A DNA stretch of 64,000 bases from positions 544,001-608,000 of the forward strand of contig CBDAOI010000002.1 in assembly GCA_965198005.1 (NCBI GenBank), read 5' to 3'. The stretch is from Spirochaetia bacterium. Its GTDB lineage: Bacteria > Spirochaetota > Spirochaetia > SZUA-6 > Bin103. The translations under genes and the position numbers were made by a program. Under the pieces are notes generated by a model, which was not told where the DNA came from, ran no database searches, and was given only the letters and a program-made list of their open reading frames with translations. Shown in pieces: positions 490 through 60,370 of this stretch (position 1 is its first letter; each line of letters begins with the position of its first letter).

Positions 490-1406
490 TGGGCAACCAC
501 CACCCGCGGCAAGCCGGCAAGGTCCTCCAGCACCGCCGGCGCGGCGTACCCCTGGCGCTCGAGGCAGCCGGCCAGGCCGGCGGCACGCTCGGCCGCGGTT
601 TCCAGCACCAGAAAGCCGCCGGCGCGCAACCGCGCGCGGGCGCGGCCCAGCAGGCGCCGGGCCGGCTCCAGGCCGTCGGCGCCGCCGTCCAGCGCCAGCG
701 GCGGCTCGGGCCAGCCGCGCCGCTGCAGTTGCGCCACCTCGGCCGTGGTCAGGTAGGGAAGGTTGGCCACGATCAGGTCCCAGCGCGCGGGCGCCGGCGG
801 CAGCAGGTCGCAAGTTCGCAGCCGCACCGTTCCCGCCCCCAGGGCGCGGCAGTTGCGGGCCGCCGCGGCCACCGCGGCCGGCGCCAGATCGGACGCGCTG
901 ACCCGCCACTGCGGTCGTTCCAGTTGCAGCGTGGCGGCGATCGCGCCCGACCCGGTGCCCACGTCGTGCACCGTGACCGGTCCCCGGCGGCGGCCGGCCA
1001 CCGCGTCCCCGCAGCGCAACGCGGCGCCGACCAGCATCTCGGTCTCCGGGCGCGGGATCAGCACCTGCCGGTCGACCAGAAAGCGGCGGCCGTAGAACTC
1101 CTTGCAACCGCGCAGGTAGGCGACCGGGACGCCGGCGGCGCGGCCGGCCACCAGTTCCCGGAACCGGGCCCGCGCGGCGACCGGCAGCGGTTCGGGGTAC
1201 GCCGCGAACAGCCGCTCCTTGGAGATGCCCAAGGCATGCGCCAGCAGCACGGTGGCATCCAGCACCGGCGTCTCGTGGGCGCCGGCGCGCAGCCGCGCGG
1301 CGGCCTCCAGCAGGGCCGTGCGCACGGTCGGCCCGCGCTCCGGGGCCGGCGCCGGTCCCGGGCCGCCGGGAACCGGCGTGCGGGCGGCGACCGCCATTCC
1401 GGTCAT
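477..1406 (-). CDS. prmC: Release factor glutamine methyltransferase
   Basis: [33 protein letters not shown]; directly after prfA. Confidence 0.95.
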
Positions 1407-51095: not shown

Positions 51096-52529
51096 GGGTG
51101 CCAATGCCAAAAGCGGTAACAGGGGTTGACACGATCAAGCGGCGGCTGCCCAGGGCTGTGGTTGGGGCTGGAAGTAGCGTTCCAACTCACCGTTGAGGAG
51201 TGCCAAGCGGGTGCGCAGCACGCACTCGTTGTCGTGGCGCTTCCAACGCATTCCGTTGCCTTTGAACCGTCGCCCGACGACAAACTTGCACTGACCTTCC
51301 ACTGAGCCGCTGCCGATTGGCCAACCAGCTGCTCGGTAGCGCGGGTAGTCCATGCGCTCCTGGTTGTTCTTGAAGTAGTTGGTCTGCTTCCAGGCAAGGT
51401 CGCTGTCGCTGGTCTTGGGCACCGCGCGCTTCATCTCGTGAATCATTTGCAGCACCTCGCCCTCCCACATCATCGTCGACCAGCGGCGGCGTCGTGCTGT
51501 ACGCAGCGATGTCGGCAGCAGATCACCATAGTCAGTGAGGTGTTTCTCAGCATGGTAGTAGTCGAGAATTTGTACCGCTCCGGGAAAGTGGGTCATCTGC
51601 AATTCCCAATTGTGGTGCGCGCCATCGGCCAGAAATAGCGTCTGCCCGGCATCCATGAAGCCCATCTGCAGCCCCGCCTGCTCGGCGTACTCGGCGAATT
51701 CCTTGCGTGGTCCGTAGCGCGCGCCCGTCCAGCGGTCGATGATCTTCTTCCCTTCCCGCTGCTCGATGACTATCAGGTTGCACTCCTTGTGACAGGTCGG
51801 AGCGCGCAGGCTCGCACGCCCCGTTACTCCTTCCAGCTCAGTGATTTGTGGACTCATCGTTCCGTCCACCTCAACCACCATCAGCGGGCACGGTCGATCC
51901 CTGCGCGCCGCTTCGATCAGAGGAGCTTCCGGAATACGCTCCCCGGTCTTCTCGGTGGTCCGCTGCACCGCCGTCGCACTTACGCTGAATCCCAGCAGCC
52001 GCTCCAGCTTCTCTGCCGCCCCCTGGTACGACTCATCAGCGCCCAGCGCGCAGATCAGCAGCGTCATCAACGGTGAGTACCCGAAACAGCCGTCCATTCC
52101 CATTTGCGCATCCAGCGGCGCTATACTCCCCGACCGATCCCGGTACCGGTAGCACCGTCGCGGGCGTACTACCTCCTCCCCAAATCGGTTGATGAAGCGT
52201 AGATTGCGCACCCGCTCGAACACCGCCACCTCGTCCCCCACCTTGATCTGGTTGGCGTGGGTCGGCTCTTCGACGCCCTCGACCACCTCCTGGACCATCA
52301 TGTCCCCAACCCAGTTCACGAACTCAAGAATCTTCCCCTCGGCGTCGTGCAGGCCGATCTGGCCGCCGTTGATACGCCCCCTGAGCTGCTTGACGAGGTC
52401 CTGAGCCTGCTCTATAATTTCTTCCGTCTTCATGGTCTACCTGCCTCCTGAAAGTTTGCTACTTGGGCAGGTAGACCTTTTTTGTCCCTCAAGTCAATGG
52501 TTTTGCTACCGCTTTCGGCGTTCGCACCC
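51096..52529 (-). mobile_element. Complete ISKra4/ISLre2-type IS
   Basis: Inverted repeats GGGTGCCAATGCCAAAAGCGGTAAC / GGGTGCGAACGCCGAAAGCGGTAGC (21 of 25 match); no target duplication seen. Confidence 0.82.
51135..52433 (-). CDS. ISKra4/ISLre2-type DDE transposase, intact
   Basis: EVDGT, ADGAHHNW, ILDYYHA, IGSGSVEGQCK. Confidence 0.9.
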   Translation of the reverse strand: MKTEEIIEQAQDLVKQLRGRINGGQIGLHDAEGKILEFVNWVGDMMVQEVVEGVEEPTHANQIKVGDEVAVFERVRNLRFINRFGEEVVRPRRCYRYRDRSGSIAPLDAQMGMDGCFGYSPLMTLLICALGADESYQGAAEKLERLLGFSVSATAVQRTTEKTGERIPEAPLIEAARRDRPCPLMVVEVDGTMSPQITELEGVTGRASLRAPTCHKECNLIVIEQREGKKIIDRWTGARYGPRKEFAEYAEQAGLQMGFMDAGQTLFLADGAHHNWELQMTHFPGAVQILDYYHAEKHLTDYGDLLPTSLRTARRRRWSTMMWEGEVLQMIHEMKRAVPKTSDSDLAWKQTNYFKNNQERMDYPRYRAAGWPIGSGSVEGQCKFVVGRRFKGNGMRWKRHDNECVLRTRLALLNGELERYFQPQPQPWAAAA

Positions 52530-52960: not shown

Positions 52961-53471
52961 TGCAGCACCGCCCGCTGTCTGAAGCTCGGCCACGTCGCGT
53001 TTCAGGTTCGCCACGTCCGCCTGCAGAATACGCAAATCGGTGGCGTAAGTTGTTCGCTCCACAGCCGCGACGATTTCCGCGACCAAGTGGCCCACGACGT
53101 CCTTACCCGACCACGCGGGCTGGACCGCGGCGGCTATCCGCTCGAAAAGGACCAACCGCGCCGAGTCAACCCCTGGACCACACCCTCGGCAATCTCCTGA
53201 GCTAACCCGTTGTGGAGGAATGCCAACTCCTGCCTGACGAAGCGGCCGTGAATCTCCATGTCCTTGGTCAACTTAGCCATCTTTTCATCGAAACCGGCCA
53301 TCTTTTCATCGAAACCGGCCATCTTTTCATCGCGGCCATCTTTTCATCGAAACCGGCCATCTTTTCATCGAAACCGGCCATCTTTTCATCGAAACCGGCC
53401 ATCTTTTCATTAAGACTGGCCACGTTATCATAGAGCCTGACCAGCAAATCGTCTCTGTCGGCCTCCGTCAT
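52958..53471 (-). pseudogene. Heptad coiled-coil protein (EKMAGFD)n, frameshifted
   Basis: GGAGG RBS; one repeat unit 4 nt short; second shift near 53150. Confidence 0.6.
53276..53410. repeat. 21-bp tandem repeat, 7 units (one of 17 bp)
   Basis: GCCATCTTTTCATCGAAACCG at 53276, 53297, 53318, 53335, 53356, 53377, 53398. Confidence 0.92.
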
Positions 53472-53547
53472 CCAATGCACCTCCAGTGTACGGATATTCC
53501 ACTAGCTAGCTAGCTATACCACATGGTGGCACGGTTCATCAAGCGGG

Positions 53548-53705: not shown

Positions 53706-54125
53706 ACACTTGCGTCACCTGTAGTAGTCAGCGTAATAGTCTCCGCCGCCGGGGCAGACGTTGGTGTGCTCGGTCCCCCCGATCAAGTGGCGGAAGACGC
53801 GCTGCGCCGGGCCACGGTGGCCGGGGCGATCGTGGTGGCACCGGGCGGCGACGGTTCAGCGGAGATGCCGACTGGTAGGGCTCACCGTCGGCGCCGGCCA
53901 CCAGGAAACTCGTATTCGAGCCGTTCCGCGCCCGATCCCGTCGGGCGCGACGTTTGCTGATGCTGATCCCGGTGACCTTGGGGAGCCGATTGGGGGGTCT
54001 CCATCATCGACTGCGTTCAACCGAATCGTGATCTGCGCTCCGATGCTGCTGAGCGTAGCAGTCGCCCTTTTTGCCGGGATCGTCGTATTCGTTGACACGG
54101 ACGACACGGACCTCCAATCACCCAA

Positions 54126-54157
54126 CAAAAAACGGCGCATCCGGGAGGGATGCGCCG
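54126..54157 (-). terminator. Intrinsic terminator after cassette 3
   Basis: CGGCGCATCC-CTCCC-GGATGCGCCG plus T tract. Confidence 0.9.
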
Positions 54158-54186
54158 TGGTTGTCGAAGTGACCTGGTAGGGGGGT

Positions 54187-55298
54187 CTAGTATTTGACCT
54201 TGGTCCAGGCGGTCAGGACGCCCAGGTCGTCGTTGTCCGGATCGAACAGCGATTTGGACTTCCACTTCATGCCGAGTTCGGCCATCGGGATCGCCTCGGT
54301 TAGCAGCACCTGGAGTTCGGTATCCACCTGGGACTTCTCGTTATCCAACCGGTTGAGGGTGACGTCGATACTCGGGGTCAGCTTGCCGCCGAGTGCGTCG
54401 AACCCGTAGCTGAGGTTGGCGTTGACCATCATGTCGCTCTTGTCGTTATGGGTCTTGCCCGTGGGGGTGTCGGGAGCTTCGGGATTACCGTTGGCAATAT
54501 CGAACAGTCCCCAGGAAAGCCCGAGGCTCAGGTTCTCGACCAGCCCCATTCCGTCGCCCATCGTTCCGTCGTCCTTCAGTCTGACGTCACGTCACTCGCG
54601 ACATCGTTGTCGGTGGAGTAGATGTAGTTGGCATCCAGCTTTGGTGCCGGTCGACAGCGCGAAGCCCAGCCCGGCGCCCAACTCGTAGTCGGTGCTGGCC
54701 TCTCTGCGGTGTCGGTGGCGCCGGTCAGCACGACGTCGTCGGCGCCCGCCGACAGGGACAGATCGCCGAGGTTGCCCGTGATCTTGGCCGCGAAGCCGGT
54801 CGCCCGTCCGACGGTCGGGTCGCTGTCGTCGCCCTCGATGGTCCGGACGCCCTGCAGGTCGACCGTGGCCGGGCCGATGTCCACGTCGATGTCACCGTTG
54901 ACGTACCAGTCGTGCTTCCTGGCCAACTCGTCTTCCTCGGCCGCGGCATCGTCCGCGGGCTCGTCATAGCCAAGCCCCGAAGAGACTCCCACCGCGATGC
55001 TCGGACCCTCCTGTCGAGCCCGGCGTGGTGCCGTGGCCGCCGAGATGGACGCTGAGATCCTCGTCGTCGCTCTCCGCGTTGCCGGCGTGGTCGTCATCCT
55101 CGACCGCAGGGATCAGGCCCGCCTTGTTGCTGGGAGACGTGTAGATCTGGATCGACGGCGGCCGGTTGATCAAACTTGGCGGTTACGTCCGGATTTTGAC
55201 CACGGCTAGCGCCCTCATGGGTGTGCCCCTCGTGGGCAGCCGCAGGTGTAGTTCGGGAACGCACCAGCGGCTGCGGGCGTGGCTTCACCGGCTGGCAC
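54187..55298 (-). pseudogene. Silent msp-like cassette 3 (3' part only)
   Basis: Homologous to 57736-58760; ends TAWTKVKY; several indels; no signal peptide. Confidence 0.85.
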
Positions 55299-55320
55299 TT
55301 GGCGGCGTGATCGACCTGAC

Positions 55321-55356
55321 AAACAAAACGACGGCGCATCCGGGAGGGATGCGCCG
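55321..55356 (-). terminator. Intrinsic terminator after cassette 2
   Basis: Same hairpin at 55332-55356. Confidence 0.88.
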
Positions 55357-55392
55357 TCGTTGTCGAAGTGACCTGCTAATTGGGGATCTAGT

Positions 55393-56473
55393 CTAGGACT
55401 TGACCTTGGTCCAGGCGGTCAGGACGCCCAGGCTGTCGTTGTCCGGATCGAACAGCGAGTCGGACTTCCACTTCATGCCGAGCTCGGCCTGCGGGATCGC
55501 CTCGGTCAGCACCAGCTTGATCTCGGTGTCCACCACGGCCTTGTCGCTATCCAACCGGTTGTACTTCACGTCGATGCTCGGGGTCAGCTTGCCGCCGAGC
55601 GCCTCGAACCCGTAGCCCAGGTTGGCGCCGACCATCATGTCCAGCTTGTCGTTGTGCCCCTTATCCTCGTTGTCGGGATTGCCGTTGGTCAGATCGTACA
55701 GTCCCCAGCTCAGCGCCAGGCTCAGGTTCTCGATGATCCCCGCGGTGTCTTTCAGGCTGACTTCCACGTCGCTCGCGACGTCCTTGTCGGTGGAGTAGAT
55801 GTAATCGGCATCCATCGTGGTGGTGTCGGTCAGCGCGAAGCCCAGGCCGGCGCCCAACTCGTAGTCGGTGCTGGCCTCTGTGGTGTCGGTGGCGCCGGTC
55901 AGCACAATGTCACCGCCCGCCGACAGGGACAGATCGCCGAGGTTGCCCGTGATCTTGGCCGCGAAGCCGGTCACCGGTCCCACGGTCGGGTCGCTGTCGT
56001 CGCCCTTGATGGCCTGGACGACCTGCAGGTCGACCGTGGCCGGGCCGATGTCCACGTTGATGTCACCGTTGACGTACCAGTCGCCCTTCCTGGCCGACTC
56101 GTCTTCCTCGGTCGCGGCATCGTCCGCGGGCTCGTCATAGGCAAGCTCCGAAGAAATCCCGACCGCGATGCTCAGCGCCTCGGTGTCGTAGCCCAGCGTG
56201 GTGCCGTGGCCGCCGAAGGTGGACGTTGAGATCGTCGTCGTCGCTCTCCGCGTTGCCGGCGGCGTCGTCATCCTCGACCGGGGGGGATGAGGCCCGCCGC
56301 GTTGCTACTGGGAGACGTGTAGACCGGATCGACGACGGACGGTTTGATCATCTTGGCGGTTACGTCCGGATATTGACCACGACAGCGCGCTCATGGGTGT
56401 GCTCCTCGTGGGCAGCTGAAGTGTCGTTCGGGAACGCACCACCGGCTGCGGGCGTGGCTTCGCCGGCTGGCAC
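55393..56473 (-). pseudogene. Silent msp-like cassette 2
   Basis: Open from about 56225 to the stop (TAWTKVKS); frameshifts further 5'. Confidence 0.88.
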
Positions 56474-56495
56474 TTGGCGGCGTGATCGACCTGAC

Positions 56496-56528
56496 AAAAA
56501 AAACGGCGCATCCGGGAGGGATGCGCCG
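56496..56528 (-). terminator. Intrinsic terminator after cassette 1
   Basis: Same hairpin at 56504-56528 plus T8. Confidence 0.92.
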
Positions 56529-56558
56529 TCGTTGTCGAAGTGACCTGCTAATTGGGGA

Positions 56559-57649
56559 TTAGTAGGAAACCTTGGTCCAGGCGGTCAGGACGCCCAGGCT
56601 GTCGTTGTCCGGATCGAATACCGAGTCGGACTTCCACTTCATGCCGAGCTCGGCCTGCGGGATCGCCTCGGTCAGCACCAGCTTGATCTCGGTGTCCACC
56701 ACGGCCTTGTCGCTATCCAACCGGTTGTACTTCACGTCGATGCTCGGGGTCAGCTTGCCGCCGAGCGCCTCGAATCCGTAGCCGAGGTTGGCGCCGACCA
56801 TCATGTCCAGCTTGTCGTTGTGCCCCTTATCCTCGTTGTCGGGATTGCCGTTGCTCAGATCGTACAGTCCCCAGCTCAGCGCCAAGCTCAGGTTCTCGAT
56901 GATCCCCGCGGTGTCTTTCAGGCTGACTTCCACGTCGCTCGCGACGTCCTTGTCGGTGGAGTAGATGTAATCGGCATCCATCGTGGTGGTGTCGGTCAGC
57001 GCGAAGCCCAGGCCGGCGCCCAACTCGTAGTCGGTGCTGGCCGCGGTGGTGTCGGTGGCGCCGGTCAGCACAATGTCACCGCCCGCCGACAGGGACAGAT
57101 CGCCGAGGTTGCCCGTGATCTTGGCCCCGAAGCCGGTCGTCGGTCCCACGGTCGGGTCGCTGTCGTCGCCCTTGATGGTCTGGACGACCTCCAGGTCGAC
57201 CGTGGCCGGGCCGATGTCCACGTTGATGTCACCGCTGACGTACCAATCGCCCTTCCTGGCCGACTCGTCTTCCTCGGTCGCGGCATCGTCCGCGGGCTCG
57301 TCATAGGCAAGCTCCGAAGAAATCCCACCGCGATCCTCGGACCCCTCGGTGTCGTAGCCCAGCGTGGTGCCGTGGCCGCCGAGGTGGACGCTGAGATCGT
57401 CGTCGTCGCTCTCCGCGTTGCCGGCGTCGTCGTCATCCTCGACCGCAGGGATCAGGCCCGCCTTGTTGCTCCGGAGACGTGTAGATCTGGATCGACGGCG
57501 GCCGGTTGATCAACTTGGCGGTTACCGTCCGGATTCTTGGCCACGACAGCGCCCTCATCGGTTGTGCTCCTCGTCGGCAGATGCAGTGTCGTTCGGGAAT
57601 CGTTCGGGAACGCACCACCGGCTGCGGGCGTGGCTTCGCCGGCTGGCAC
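56559..57649 (-). pseudogene. Silent msp-like cassette 1
   Basis: Near-identical to cassette 2; ends TAWTKVSY; frameshifts 5' of about 57320. Confidence 0.88.
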
Positions 57650-57671
57650 TTGGCGGCGTGATCGACCTGAC

Positions 57672-57705
57672 AAAAAAAAACGGCGCATCCGGGAGGGATG
57701 CGCCG
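57672..57705 (-). terminator. Intrinsic terminator of the full-length msp-like gene
   Basis: Hairpin 57681-57705 plus T9. Confidence 0.93.
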
Positions 57706-57735
57706 TCGTTGTCCAAGTGACCTGCTAATTGGGGA

Positions 57736-59814
57736 TTAGTAGGAAATCTTGGTCCAGGCGGTCAGGACGCCCAGGCTGTCGTCGTCGGGATCGAATACCG
57801 AATCGGACTTCCACTTCATGCCGAGCTCGGCCTGCGGGATCGCCTCGGTCAGCACCAGCTTGACTTCCGTGTTTACCATGGAAGGCTCGCTATCCACCCG
57901 GTGGAAGGTAACGTCGATGCTCGGAGTCAGCTTGCCGCCGAGAGCATCGAAACCGTAACCAAGGTTGGCGTTTACCGCCATGTCCATCTGATCGTTATGG
58001 GTATTGTCTTCGGTGTCCGGGTTACCGTTGGTCACATCAAACAGTCCCCAACTGAGCCCGAGGCTCAGGTTCTCGACGATGCCCGCGCTATCCTCCAAAG
58101 AGACGAACACGTCACTCGCAACGTCCTGGTTGCTGGAATAGATGTAGTCGGCATCCAGTGAAGTGGTTTCGGTGAGCGCAAAACCGAGGCTCGCGCCCAT
58201 CTCCCAGTTGGTCTCGGCCGCCGCGTCGCCAATGGCACCGATCAACTCCACGTCCGCGCCCGCCGATAGGGACAGATCGCCGAGGTCGCCCCCGATCTTG
58301 GCCGCGAAACCGGTCGTCGTCGGATTGTCGCTGTCCTGGCCTTGGATCGACTGCACGACCTGCAGATCGACCTGGGCCGGTCCGATATCCACCATTATGT
58401 CACCGCTCACGTACCAGTCACCCTTCGTGGCCGACTCGTCTTCCTCGGTTTCGGCATCGTCCTCCGGCTCGTCATAAGCAAGCTCAGAAGAGACACCCAC
58501 AGCGATGCTGAGACCCTCAATATCGTAGCCCAGCGTGATGCCCTTACCGGGCAACTCGACCTGAACGTCGCCATCATCGCTAACCGATGCATTGTCGGCG
58601 TCCAACACGTCGTGCTTGTCATCGTCACCTTCGAGGGCATCGATCAACCCCGCCTTGTTGTCGGGACCCGAGAAGATCTGAATCGACAGCGGCCCGTTGA
58701 TCAGCTTGGCGGTGATCGTCGGATCCTTGATCACGATAACGCCCTCGTGGGAGTGCGCACCATGCTCATGCGGCCCATGAGTATGCGTATCGTGGGTATG
58801 TCCGGCATTCTCGGTGTTGTGCGTGTGGGAATGAGGCAGGATTGCCGGGATCTCGTACTCGCTAATGTCGAATTCGTCGAAGGCCTCGTCGTTATCGTCG
58901 CGGTCCATGGCCGTAACCAGATGATAGTGGACTGGAACGGCAGGCTGTTCTACGCCACCCACGTCCTCCGCGGGCTCCGATACTCCGGTCCGCGCAACGT
59001 TACCCCCCGCTCGTGCGACGCAGCTTGTACTACATTCATCGGTCGGTCGCGTAAAGCTCCCAGGACCGGTTTGCGGACGTGTGCTTTCGTCCACATCGGC
59101 CGTGTCTGCGTCATCCTCAAATACCGGCACTCGGGATCCTTGTTCGCCTGCGTCTGCGAAGGATGGCAGTGCATGTGTATGGGTAATTTTTGCGTATATG
59201 GGTCCAGTGTATTCGGTATCTTGAATATTAGTGGACTTTCAGGGTCGCACCCCCTCAGTTTCTCTATCCATCACATACCCTGTGTACCCACTGTCCGTAA
59301 TCTCACCGAGACTATCTGCAGGTAAACTGGAGCCGAAATACGTATTCGGAACAATTACGGGATCTTCGCTTCCGTCAATAGTGCCGTGACTATGGGGATA
59401 GGCCGGATACATGACACTACCGTCACCGGTCATGCTCTCAGTCGCGGATGGACTGGCAGCAGCGCCGCCGGTATCGGCCGTAGCCGCGCTCGTGTCCTCC
59501 GAGGTCTTGTGCACGTCATCATGACCTTGGTCGATGATGATCCGGAAGTCCTTCAGCTCGATCACGCCGATCCAGCCCGTGGAGTCCATGCCCATGTCCA
59601 TCGGGTTGGAACTGGACATCTTCGGCACCAGCGTGAGGCTGATGTTCGAGCTGAACTCGTTCTTGAACCCGAGCTTCTGATGATCCAGGTTGTAGCCAAG
59701 GGTGGCCGTGGCATCACCAGAGATCTCGAATTCCGTGTTGATAGCCATTTGCCCATACAGGCCAGCCGAGCCCGCGGCAAGTAGCACCACTAGCAGAAGT
59801 GAAAGTTTTCTCAT
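57736..59814 (-). CDS. Msp/Tpr-family major outer sheath beta-barrel protein with about 260-aa insertion; one in-frame TGA at 59239-59241
   Basis: AAGGAGG RBS, signal peptide, ISGDATATLG..GFKN..ISLTLVPK..IELKDF (MOSP_N-like), terminal KISY; the two track ORFs share one frame. Confidence 0.8.
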
Positions 59815-59914
59815 CACTTCCTCCTTCAGTTATTGTCGGGGCTCCGGAGCGTCACCCGGGGTCTTTCGGGCCAACGACCCGGCAGAACCCTGCCCCCGCT
59901 TTCCGTTGGTGCGA

Positions 59915-60370
59915 ATATTGCACCGCACACTACGGCTTTGTCAACTACTATATCAAGTTGCGTCAAAGATTTTGCCCGACGCGCGAGGTCTTGTCCAGTC
60001 CCCCCGCCAGGCCGCGTAAACGCGCTCATCTCCGATCTCCTCCGCCCACGCCCGAGTGAGGCGCCGCCGCCCGCCAGGGGCCGCGCCGCCCGCTCCCGCC
60101 GGGACGCTCCGGCAGGTGCAGGTCGTGGGAAACAGAAGCATAACATACGCGCGCAGGTCGTGTCCACCCCCCAGCGCAACTTTTTGCGCGGTGGGGAGGT
60201 GGGTTCTCCCCTGCTGCGACGATCGGCAGCATGGAGGATGAATATATCAGCATCATACGACACGCGTCAAGTCTACCACAAGTGGCAAGGGTACCACAAG
60301 TGGGAAATCTACCACAAGTGGCACGTCTATGACAAGTGCCGAATATACCACCAGCGGCAGGTCGTGTCCA
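59915..60370 (-). promoter_or_regulatory. Cluster of sigma70-like promoters facing the msp-like gene
   Basis: TGGACA-17-TATATT (60370-60342), TTGACG-18-TATATT (60270-60241), TGGACA-18-TATGCT (60166-60137), TGGACA-17-CAAAAT (59997-59969), TTGACA-18-CAATAT (59944-59915). Confidence 0.6.
60256..60363. repeat. 18-bp tandem array, 6 units, core TACCACAAGTGG
   Basis: Units at 60256, 60274, 60292, 60310, 60328, 60346; three perfect cores. Confidence 0.88.

Follow-up and report, generated by a model that had tools for sequence, protein, structure and literature searches.

The 64,000-nt window analysed here (positions 544,001 to 608,000 of contig CBDAOI010000002.1, from an uncultured Spirochaetia bacterium) carries an array lying wholly on the minus strand, made of one full gene for a predicted outer-membrane barrel (59814-57736) and three 5'-truncated units downstream of it, the cassettes U2, U3 and U4. 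Our results favour, at a probability of roughly 0.55, a reading in which the locus is a recombination-driven hypervariable porin and the cassettes are leftovers of tandem duplication that trade sequence with the expressed gene. The initial annotation of this DNA had proposed a surface-variation system in which a single expressed gene is altered from silent 3' cassettes; the evidence below supports the recombination and assigns the cassettes a smaller part in it.

Loop and body combinations among the expressed genes

Protein searches and cluster look-ups yielded 10 further full-length or nearly full-length genes, together with many cassette-like open reading frames (ORFs) of 154-319 aa. The 11 full-length genes (that of the window and the 10 others) were split at the motifs FRIIID and AKL.NG, and their loops and bodies sort as follows.

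Loop A: window
Loop B: P0027, P0031, P0034; 274-275 of 275 residues identical
Loop C: P0028
Loop D: P0003, P0186; P0185 at 86%
Other loops: P0187, P0044, P0042
Body class U1: window, P0027, P0186; 99% identical
Body class E2: P0031, P0034 and P0003 at 98-99%; P0028 at 94-95%; P0185 at 90-91%
Body class E3: P0187, P0044
Fourth body class: P0042

Loop alleles are 39-53% identical to each other and U1 bodies are 70-74% identical to E2 bodies; P0187 has an N-terminal module that is 89% identical and a body with 58% identity to U1 and 62% to E2. P0027 and P0031 share an identical prefix of 315 aa, after which 222 of 307 aligned residues are identical, and P0003 and P0186 are identical over 277 aa before diverging. 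Both pairs part directly after ...AKLINGPLSI. Since loops B and D are each found with both the U1 and the E2 body, in all four combinations, recombination is necessary, and the earlier proposal that the expressed gene varies in this way is borne out by the loop and body combinations of the 11 genes. In run X11, one DNA contig runs from the N-terminal module through a different loop and 58756-58674 and continues in U3-like sequence from 56253 downward. The N-terminal module itself extends to a second genus, with matches in 13 of 13 genomes.

The array and the coding state of its copies

The features of the locus, all on the minus strand, are listed below.

59820..59826, minus: ribosome-binding site (RBS) AAGGAGG, 5 nt 5' of the ATG, read from the sequence
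57736..59814, minus: full-length promoter-proximal gene, 692 codons from the ATG, TAA at 57738-57736, one in-frame TGA, from the ORF translation
59749..59814, minus: signal peptide MRKLSLLLVVLLAAGSAGLYGQ, from the translation; helix 2-23 in the model of P0034, which has an identical N-terminus
59530..59748, minus: constant N-terminal module with three predicted barrel strands, about 99-100% identical in P0034, P0028 and P0185
58729..59529, minus: His-rich linker of 267 codons, hypervariable, predicted to form a giant loop joining strand 3 to strand 4
59239..59241, minus: in-frame TGA at codon 193, with the GTG at 59817 taken as codon 1, from the translation
57739..58728, minus: expressed body, unit U1, class U1, 330 codons; 99% identical to the P0027 and P0186 bodies, 71-73% to E2
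57675..57834, minus: shared 3' homology block (last 32 codons, 3' untranslated region (UTR), terminator)
57682..57704, minus: U1 terminator stem, then T9, from stem search and terminator scoring
56505..57681, minus: cassette U2; lacks promoter and RBS, has 5 frameshifts in the 5' quarter and its own stop and terminator (56527-56505)
55333..56504, minus: cassette U3; 5 frameshifts in the 5' fifth, terminator 55355-55333 with an interrupted T-run
54134..55332, minus: cassette U4; 6 scattered frameshifts, an 18-nt and a 12-nt insertion, divergent 3' half, terminator 54156-54134

A 23-nt stem, GGCGCATCCCTCCCGGATGCGCC, stands four times on the minus strand (57704-57682, 56527-56505, 55355-55333 and 54156-54134), each time followed by a T-run, and all four copies score as terminators. 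The unit spacing first reported, 1177, 1172 and 1199 bp from terminator to terminator, proved exact on this stem search. U2-U4 correspond to the last ~1.2 kb of the full gene with its terminator (mean column identity 84%) and share one start point right after the preceding T-run, as had been claimed, the first 60 aligned nt being identical at 60 of 60 positions between U2 and U3 and at 57 of 60 between U2 and U4. Promoter-like sites number 4 in 53800-60300 (1.3 expected by chance); three lie upstream of the full gene, one lies within U1, and none of them falls within the cassettes (57681-54134). The picture of one promoter-bearing gene, with its RBS and signal peptide, followed by promoterless, 5'-truncated copies that end in terminators is therefore sound. 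One promoter-bearing site with a contiguous array of promoterless cassettes is the layout of vls-type systems, and tandem copies that lack promoter, RBS and 5' coding part and keep a variable 3' part are that of pilS and vlhA; both descriptions apply here. In the source genome the family is confined to the array, where 6 of 6 matches lie.

The full gene had been called complete, which stands as to its RBS, ATG, signal peptide and TAA and fails at one codon, the in-frame TGA at 59241-59239. No stop codon interrupts the linker in the 10 other full-length proteins, and the TGA was seen only in the allele of the source genome. An RNA contig with 32 letter differences and 12 gaps covers the position, the base there not being listed. 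The TGA either makes this expressed copy a null allele or reflects an error in the consensus. Public annotation gives the locus a 390-aa ORF (P0002), with its start downstream of the TGA.

The ~340 codons that each unit was said to encode are not intact in any of them. Frameshifting indels lie at alignment columns 164, 201, 260, 413 and 428 in U2, at 191, 221, 241, 281 and 371 in U3, and at 214, 399, 405, 713, 780 and 831 in U4, and the frames open to the natural stop cover just 220 codons in U2 (57221-56559) and 292 codons in U3 (56271-55393). All five frameshifts of U2 fall in the first 26% of its coding span (P=0.0012 from the position of the last one), and all five of U3 in the first 21% (P=0.0004, likewise). 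Once corrected for register, the cassettes contain zero nonsense codons, which is not significant in simulation (P ~0.10 when U2/U3 are compared with U4, 0.51 when U2 is compared with U3). Short-read contigs from two studies reproduce the frameshifted stretch of U3 without gaps (X1 over 56227-56439, X2 over 56228-56415), so these frameshifts are not long-read errors, and an X11 short-read contig from a third study spans the U3/U4 junction (54930-55373). Without promoter, RBS or signal peptide, and partly out of frame, the cassettes cannot make the protein. A C7 run lies in U3 at 56280-56286 (minus strand), and cassette ORF P0004 of another assembly reads through this site as if it held one more C, in a 319-aa frame with the acidic loop locally shifted.

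Origin of the cassettes and competing explanations

The U1 body is identical to U2 at 480 of 618 nt, to U3 at 481 of 618 (78%) and to U4 at 466 of 617. Against U2 this rises to 91 of 95 in the last 32 codons and to 67 of 68 in the 3' UTR and terminator. Synonymous divergence (dS) between U1 and U2-U4 is ~0.53 with an omega (nonsynonymous to synonymous ratio) of 0.35-0.47, which marks U1 as an old, constrained functional allele and not as a recent copy, while dS is 0.048 (omega 0.79) for U2 against U3 and 0.18 (omega 0.71-0.76) for U2 or U3 against U4. Identity of U1 to the cassettes stays at 69-88% per 60-nt window up to column 1130, and U1 is no mosaic of them. Within the array a mosaic was found in U2, whose 3' end resembles U1 (98% in the column window 1191-1250) and whose body resembles U3.

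The closest counterparts of the cassettes are E2 genes of other assemblies. The rear two-thirds of the cassettes match the body of P0003, an E2 gene, at 95-100% in most 20-aa windows, and the front windows at 47-67%; for U2 the values are 95-100% in windows from codon 200 to 340 and 50-67% from codon 40 to 100. Identity of ~90% to the cognate expressed gene, as in vls arrays, is thus reached only against E2 genes elsewhere, at the protein level. In a pilS or vlhA system expressed variants would be chimeric, with a variable part taken from a silent copy; here cassettes agree at 95-100% with E2 bodies over the rear two-thirds, the front third never matches, and U1 and E3 bodies find no counterpart among the cassettes. 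None of the 11 expressed full-length genes has the cassette type of front third (..NRPPSIQIYTSPSNKAGLIPAVEDDD..). Cassette ORFs of all assemblies are of the U2/U3 kind, with one (P0006) U4-like; no U1-class cassette ORF of at least 185 aa was present in the protein collection, and no E3-class cassette was seen among the cassette ORFs of the assemblies. The assembly of P0187, in which an E3 body is expressed, carries a cassette ORF that agrees with U3 at 98%, even in the parts that are out of frame.

The claim that the cassettes are the donors of the observed switches could not be upheld. With a front third that differs and is broken, and with no U1 or E3 class among them, the cassettes cannot account for whole-body switches. 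Such switches require full-length alleles, which points to strain-to-strain exchange at two conserved places, the joint and the 3' end. A drifted front, an intact E2-like rear and mosaic 3' ends nevertheless point to continued homologous exchange with the expressed gene. The cassettes are probably not the main donors of its variation.

We propose that the surface-exposed parts of the barrel would vary between strains by homologous recombination among modules, namely a constant signal peptide with three strands, a His-rich loop of ~270 aa and a body of ~330 aa in deep classes. Reshuffling of loop and body would take place at a single conserved joint, ...AKLINGPLSI, and at the 3' end with its terminator, which is conserved as well. 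In an E2-bodied ancestor a segment reaching from the loop end to ~20 nt past the terminator would have been duplicated in tandem, and unequal crossing-over may then have multiplied the units. Whole-body switches would be drawn from full-length alleles of other strains, and the cassettes, which would still recombine with the expressed gene, would be at most a passive reservoir for patchy conversion of its rear two-thirds.

Several observations weigh against this reading. Loop B with body U1 and loop D with body U1 each come from one short metagenome contig (1934 and 1820 nt), and both contigs begin and end at conserved sequence, so that a chimeric assembly path is possible; the combinations free of that caveat are A with U1 (window) and B with E2 (P0034, P0031). 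The near-identity between cassette rear parts and E2 is also explicable by recent common origin with fast evolution of the front loops. Omega among the cassettes is 0.7-0.8, and breaks in the rear part of cassette ORFs P0009, P0010, P0011, P0020 and P0026 fit plain decay. The placing of full genes and cassette ORFs on one contig was deduced from equal contig sizes, and the other assemblies are represented by proteins only.

The layout also invites comparison with programmed variation of the vls, pilS or vlhA kind, in which the cassettes would be kept as silent donors and unidirectional segmental conversion would alter exposed loops. A single expression site beside promoterless, 5'-truncated tandem copies with a common 3' homology block is what such a system would show; the design is kept in at least four other assemblies regardless of the expressed body class, no frameshift falls in the rear two-thirds of U2 or U3, the small differences among E2 bodies (TTAAS/TTEAS, SVFDPDDDS/SLFDPDNDS, GFAAK/GFGAK) are all mirrored in cassettes, and U3-like patches occur in the front third of P0028. 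The same system would be expected to leave an expressed body that is a mosaic of its own cassettes, which U1 is not, and to have cassettes of the U1 or E3 class and expressed genes with the cassette front third, neither of which was seen. The array offers little diversity, having three cassettes of which one pair agrees at 98% (611/624) over columns 471-1130; the lack of nonsense codons after register correction falls short of significance, and the sister-species genomes searched gave one match each. We regard programmed variation as possible yet doubtful. An extended form of it, in which silent donors in a non-pathogenic, sponge-associated spirochaete rewrite an abundant barrel protein in its rear two-thirds, the giant His-rich loop and the body are swapped as modules and the TGA is an off state, is likewise doubtful; if true, selection by phages or host phagocytic cells would be implied.

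At the other extreme, the cassettes could be inert, decaying by-products of one tandem duplication that exchange nothing with the expressed gene, all variation being imported from other strains. Frameshifts in every unit, the omega of 0.7-0.8 among cassettes and broken cassette ORFs elsewhere, including one fused to a transposase fragment (P0020, PF07592), agree with this, as does the fact that whole-body swaps cannot originate in cassettes. Inert copies would not explain why divergence is so uneven, with junction and terminator near-identical, the rear 95-100% E2-like and the front third far more diverged, nor the mosaic structure of U2 or the non-random placement of frameshifts, and we consider this explanation unlikely. 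That the assembler strung together strain variants of a single gene is very improbable: in its favour stand an assembly of 4 contigs at 90% completeness and a locus polymorphic in every run examined, but the unit-start junction (terminator, then loop fragment) exists in no single-copy allele, the X11 contig from another study crosses the U3/U4 junction, and full gene and cassette ORFs recur in independent assemblies.

Comparison with characterized systems places the locus near several of them. In the excerpted account of Neisseria (PMC4534519), pilS copies lack promoter, RBS and 5' coding part, hold variable and conserved 3' sequence and can form tandem arrays, and pilE/pilS recombination takes place at short conserved stretches. 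To the extent of that account, the tandem, promoterless, 5'-truncated copies with a retained 3' part are alike; here the product is a barrel and not a pilin, the three copies lie directly downstream, each with its own stop and terminator, and no donor tract was seen in the expressed gene of this locus. For Mycoplasma synoviae vlhA, excerpts of two papers (PMC4206340, PMC2825196) describe a single promoter site and promoterless pseudogenes that recombine with it, yielding lineages that express different alleles. As far as those excerpts go, one promoter site with promoterless copies is common to both, whereas vlhA draws its expressed variants from a large pool of pseudogenes, and here whole-body variants have no cassette counterpart.

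Among spirochaetes, part of a Borrelia source (PMC11499132) gives the vls system as one expression site with contiguous silent cassettes that share ~90% identity with the central part of their cognate vlsE. On that partial description the likeness lies in the phylum, the single expression site and the contiguous silent array, and the differences in an identity of 78% here, units of 1.17 kb that reach the gene end, and an unrelated protein family. More generally, vls cassettes form one uninterrupted array and are not known to have stop codons or terminators of their own. In Borrelia hermsii a downstream vmp pseudogene is reportedly activated; a 5'-truncated copy downstream of the expressed gene, joinable by deletion between homologous stretches, is the shared element, and the deletion product was not observed here. 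Joints that skip or return exactly one unit of 1172 nt (55010->56183 and 56284->55113) carry no weight here, since their sides measure only 25-45 nt at 90% likeness. Treponema Msp/Tpr proteins, TprK included, are likewise spirochaete outer-membrane barrels with an N-terminal module, and tprK draws on many short donor segments and is not known to use kilobase copies. No prior description of the locus was found among the literature matches listed.

The protein, its relatives and its setting

A model was built on P0034, an intact protein of the same species, with 99 sequences; an earlier fold with 17 sequences was unusable (predicted local distance difference test, pLDDT, 41). The P0034 model has a signal helix and strands at 28-42, 47-61 and 82-88, leaves 92-369 unmodelled (loop pLDDT <50), and forms a body of ~14 long strands and a few short ones with pLDDT 85-96 over 370-696. 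Its best structural matches are all membrane beta-barrels (Foldseek E from 1.8e-4, VIA Z <=7.0). The proteins end in ...TKVSY or ...TKISY, so that the marks of a large barrel, a signal peptide, a closed antiparallel barrel of ~16-19 strands and an aromatic end, come together on the model. According to this model, the locus product is a large outer-membrane beta-barrel with a generic porin-like fold and of no specific family.

Direct membership in the Msp/Tpr family, as first suggested, was not supported. Neither MOSP_N (PF02707) nor MOSP_C (PF02722) gave a match in the 192-aa and 464-aa pieces of the window protein (Pfam, E<=0.1), in 5 orthologues (E<=1) or in P0034 (E<=0.01), where the Pfam matches were to OMP_b-brl and Autotransporter only, all of them sub-threshold. 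Among remote homologues gathered with the family profile, 2 of 99 match both MOSP_N (best E 8.6e-18) and MOSP_C (1.7e-7); of 10 tested singly, none matches MOSP_N and one matches MOSP_C weakly. A profile search of PDB sequences returned a single chance match (E 0.36), and NCBIfam assigned P0034 to no family. These profile matches suggest a link to Msp/Tpr that is distant at most.

Differences between the copies had been placed in acidic loop-like segments; for the two body classes this is true in direction and moderate in degree, with 33.5% of 173 residues outside predicted strands differing against 21.4% of 154 within them. The linker (58729-59529, minus strand) is rich in HxH-type runs such as HSHTHNTENAGHTHDTHTHGPHEHGAHSHEG, and similar His-rich insertions occur in other alleles and in protein L017 of a second genus. 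From its composition, the His-rich loop may be an exposed metal-binding surface.

The related genomes searched did not show the same array. In the genus, 9 of 10 genomes gave one match each, with open frames of 449-512 aa and no second match, and judged by these matches the gene is single-copy and without cassettes in those sister species. Compared with 9 aligned orthologues (444-489 aa), the window gene has ~255 extra residues between N-terminal module and body, and the cassettes start near the end of this insertion. The organism is a high-GC spirochaete, as stated from the start (66% G+C over its contigs). The design does recur in four other assemblies of the same lineage, where full gene and cassette ORFs lie on contigs of equal length:

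Contig of 5821 nt: full gene P0034, cassette ORF P0008
Contig of 15852 nt: full gene P0028, cassette ORF P0032
Contig of 19796 nt: full gene P0185, cassette ORFs P0030, P0038 and P0039
Contig of 2065258 nt: full gene P0187, cassette ORFs P0009 and P0010

DNA scans of genome contigs with a single protein gave 61 pattern matches, 0 of them confirmed, and scans of metagenome contigs by alignment and with a 21-nt conserved pattern gave no match. P0020 from another assembly is a cassette-like ORF whose start is fused to the transposase fragment mentioned above, an arrangement that suggests insertion of a mobile element into a cassette.

Four RNA runs labelled sponge metagenome, from one study, contain 28-33% of the sampled words. 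In run X7 a 799-nt contig lies on the U1 body (57913-58711) with 1 difference, accompanied by a 588-nt loop variant and pieces on the N-terminal module; this RNA library may contain DNA and contigs give no expression levels, and the barrel gene is apparently well transcribed. In each of the four runs examined, three of DNA and one of RNA, summed contig depth peaks by a wide margin in the bin 59675-59941 (5' UTR and gene start), and loose contig ends lie at 59826, 59866 and 59909; the stretch 59826-59909 seems to be common to many related strains or species. Two coverage patterns were set aside as evidence, because uncovered parts prove nothing when depth is derived from contigs and U2/U3-like RNA may stem from E2 expressed genes of other strains: a depth of 0-6 over U1 and loop in three DNA runs, with most flanking bins at 10-40 in X1 and X2, and an RNA cover that is present on the U2 and U3 bodies and absent from the junction bins 55136-55402 and 56204-56470.

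Upstream of the gene lies an 18-nt tandem repeat of 5.3 copies with 67% matches (60268-60363), and several runs have many differences in 60132-60264. About 1.7 kb beyond the last cassette stands a 432-aa ORF (51135-52433, minus strand) with a match to the ISKra4 family of transposases (E 2.9e-59, 201.3 bits against a cut-off of 205). A 21-nt tandem repeat of 6.6 copies (53276-53410) encodes MAGFDEK heptads in a small gene, which one 17-nt spacing splits into overlapping frames (53134-53322 and 53268-53480); a 4-nt indel between runs is found at 53501-53502.

To our knowledge, silent-copy arrays beside one expressed surface gene are known almost only from vertebrate pathogens. The same layout is present here in an uncultured spirochaete whose close strains occur in sponge metatranscriptomes, and its expressed gene is modular, with identical loop alleles joined to bodies that are only 73-74% identical. 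If the cassettes take part, recombinational surface variation would reach animal-microbe symbioses without adaptive immunity, where selection would come from phages or host phagocytes. Should they be relics, the deep, balanced body classes still merit study, as does the exposed His-rich loop of ~270 aa, which is likely to be a receptor or metal-binding surface.

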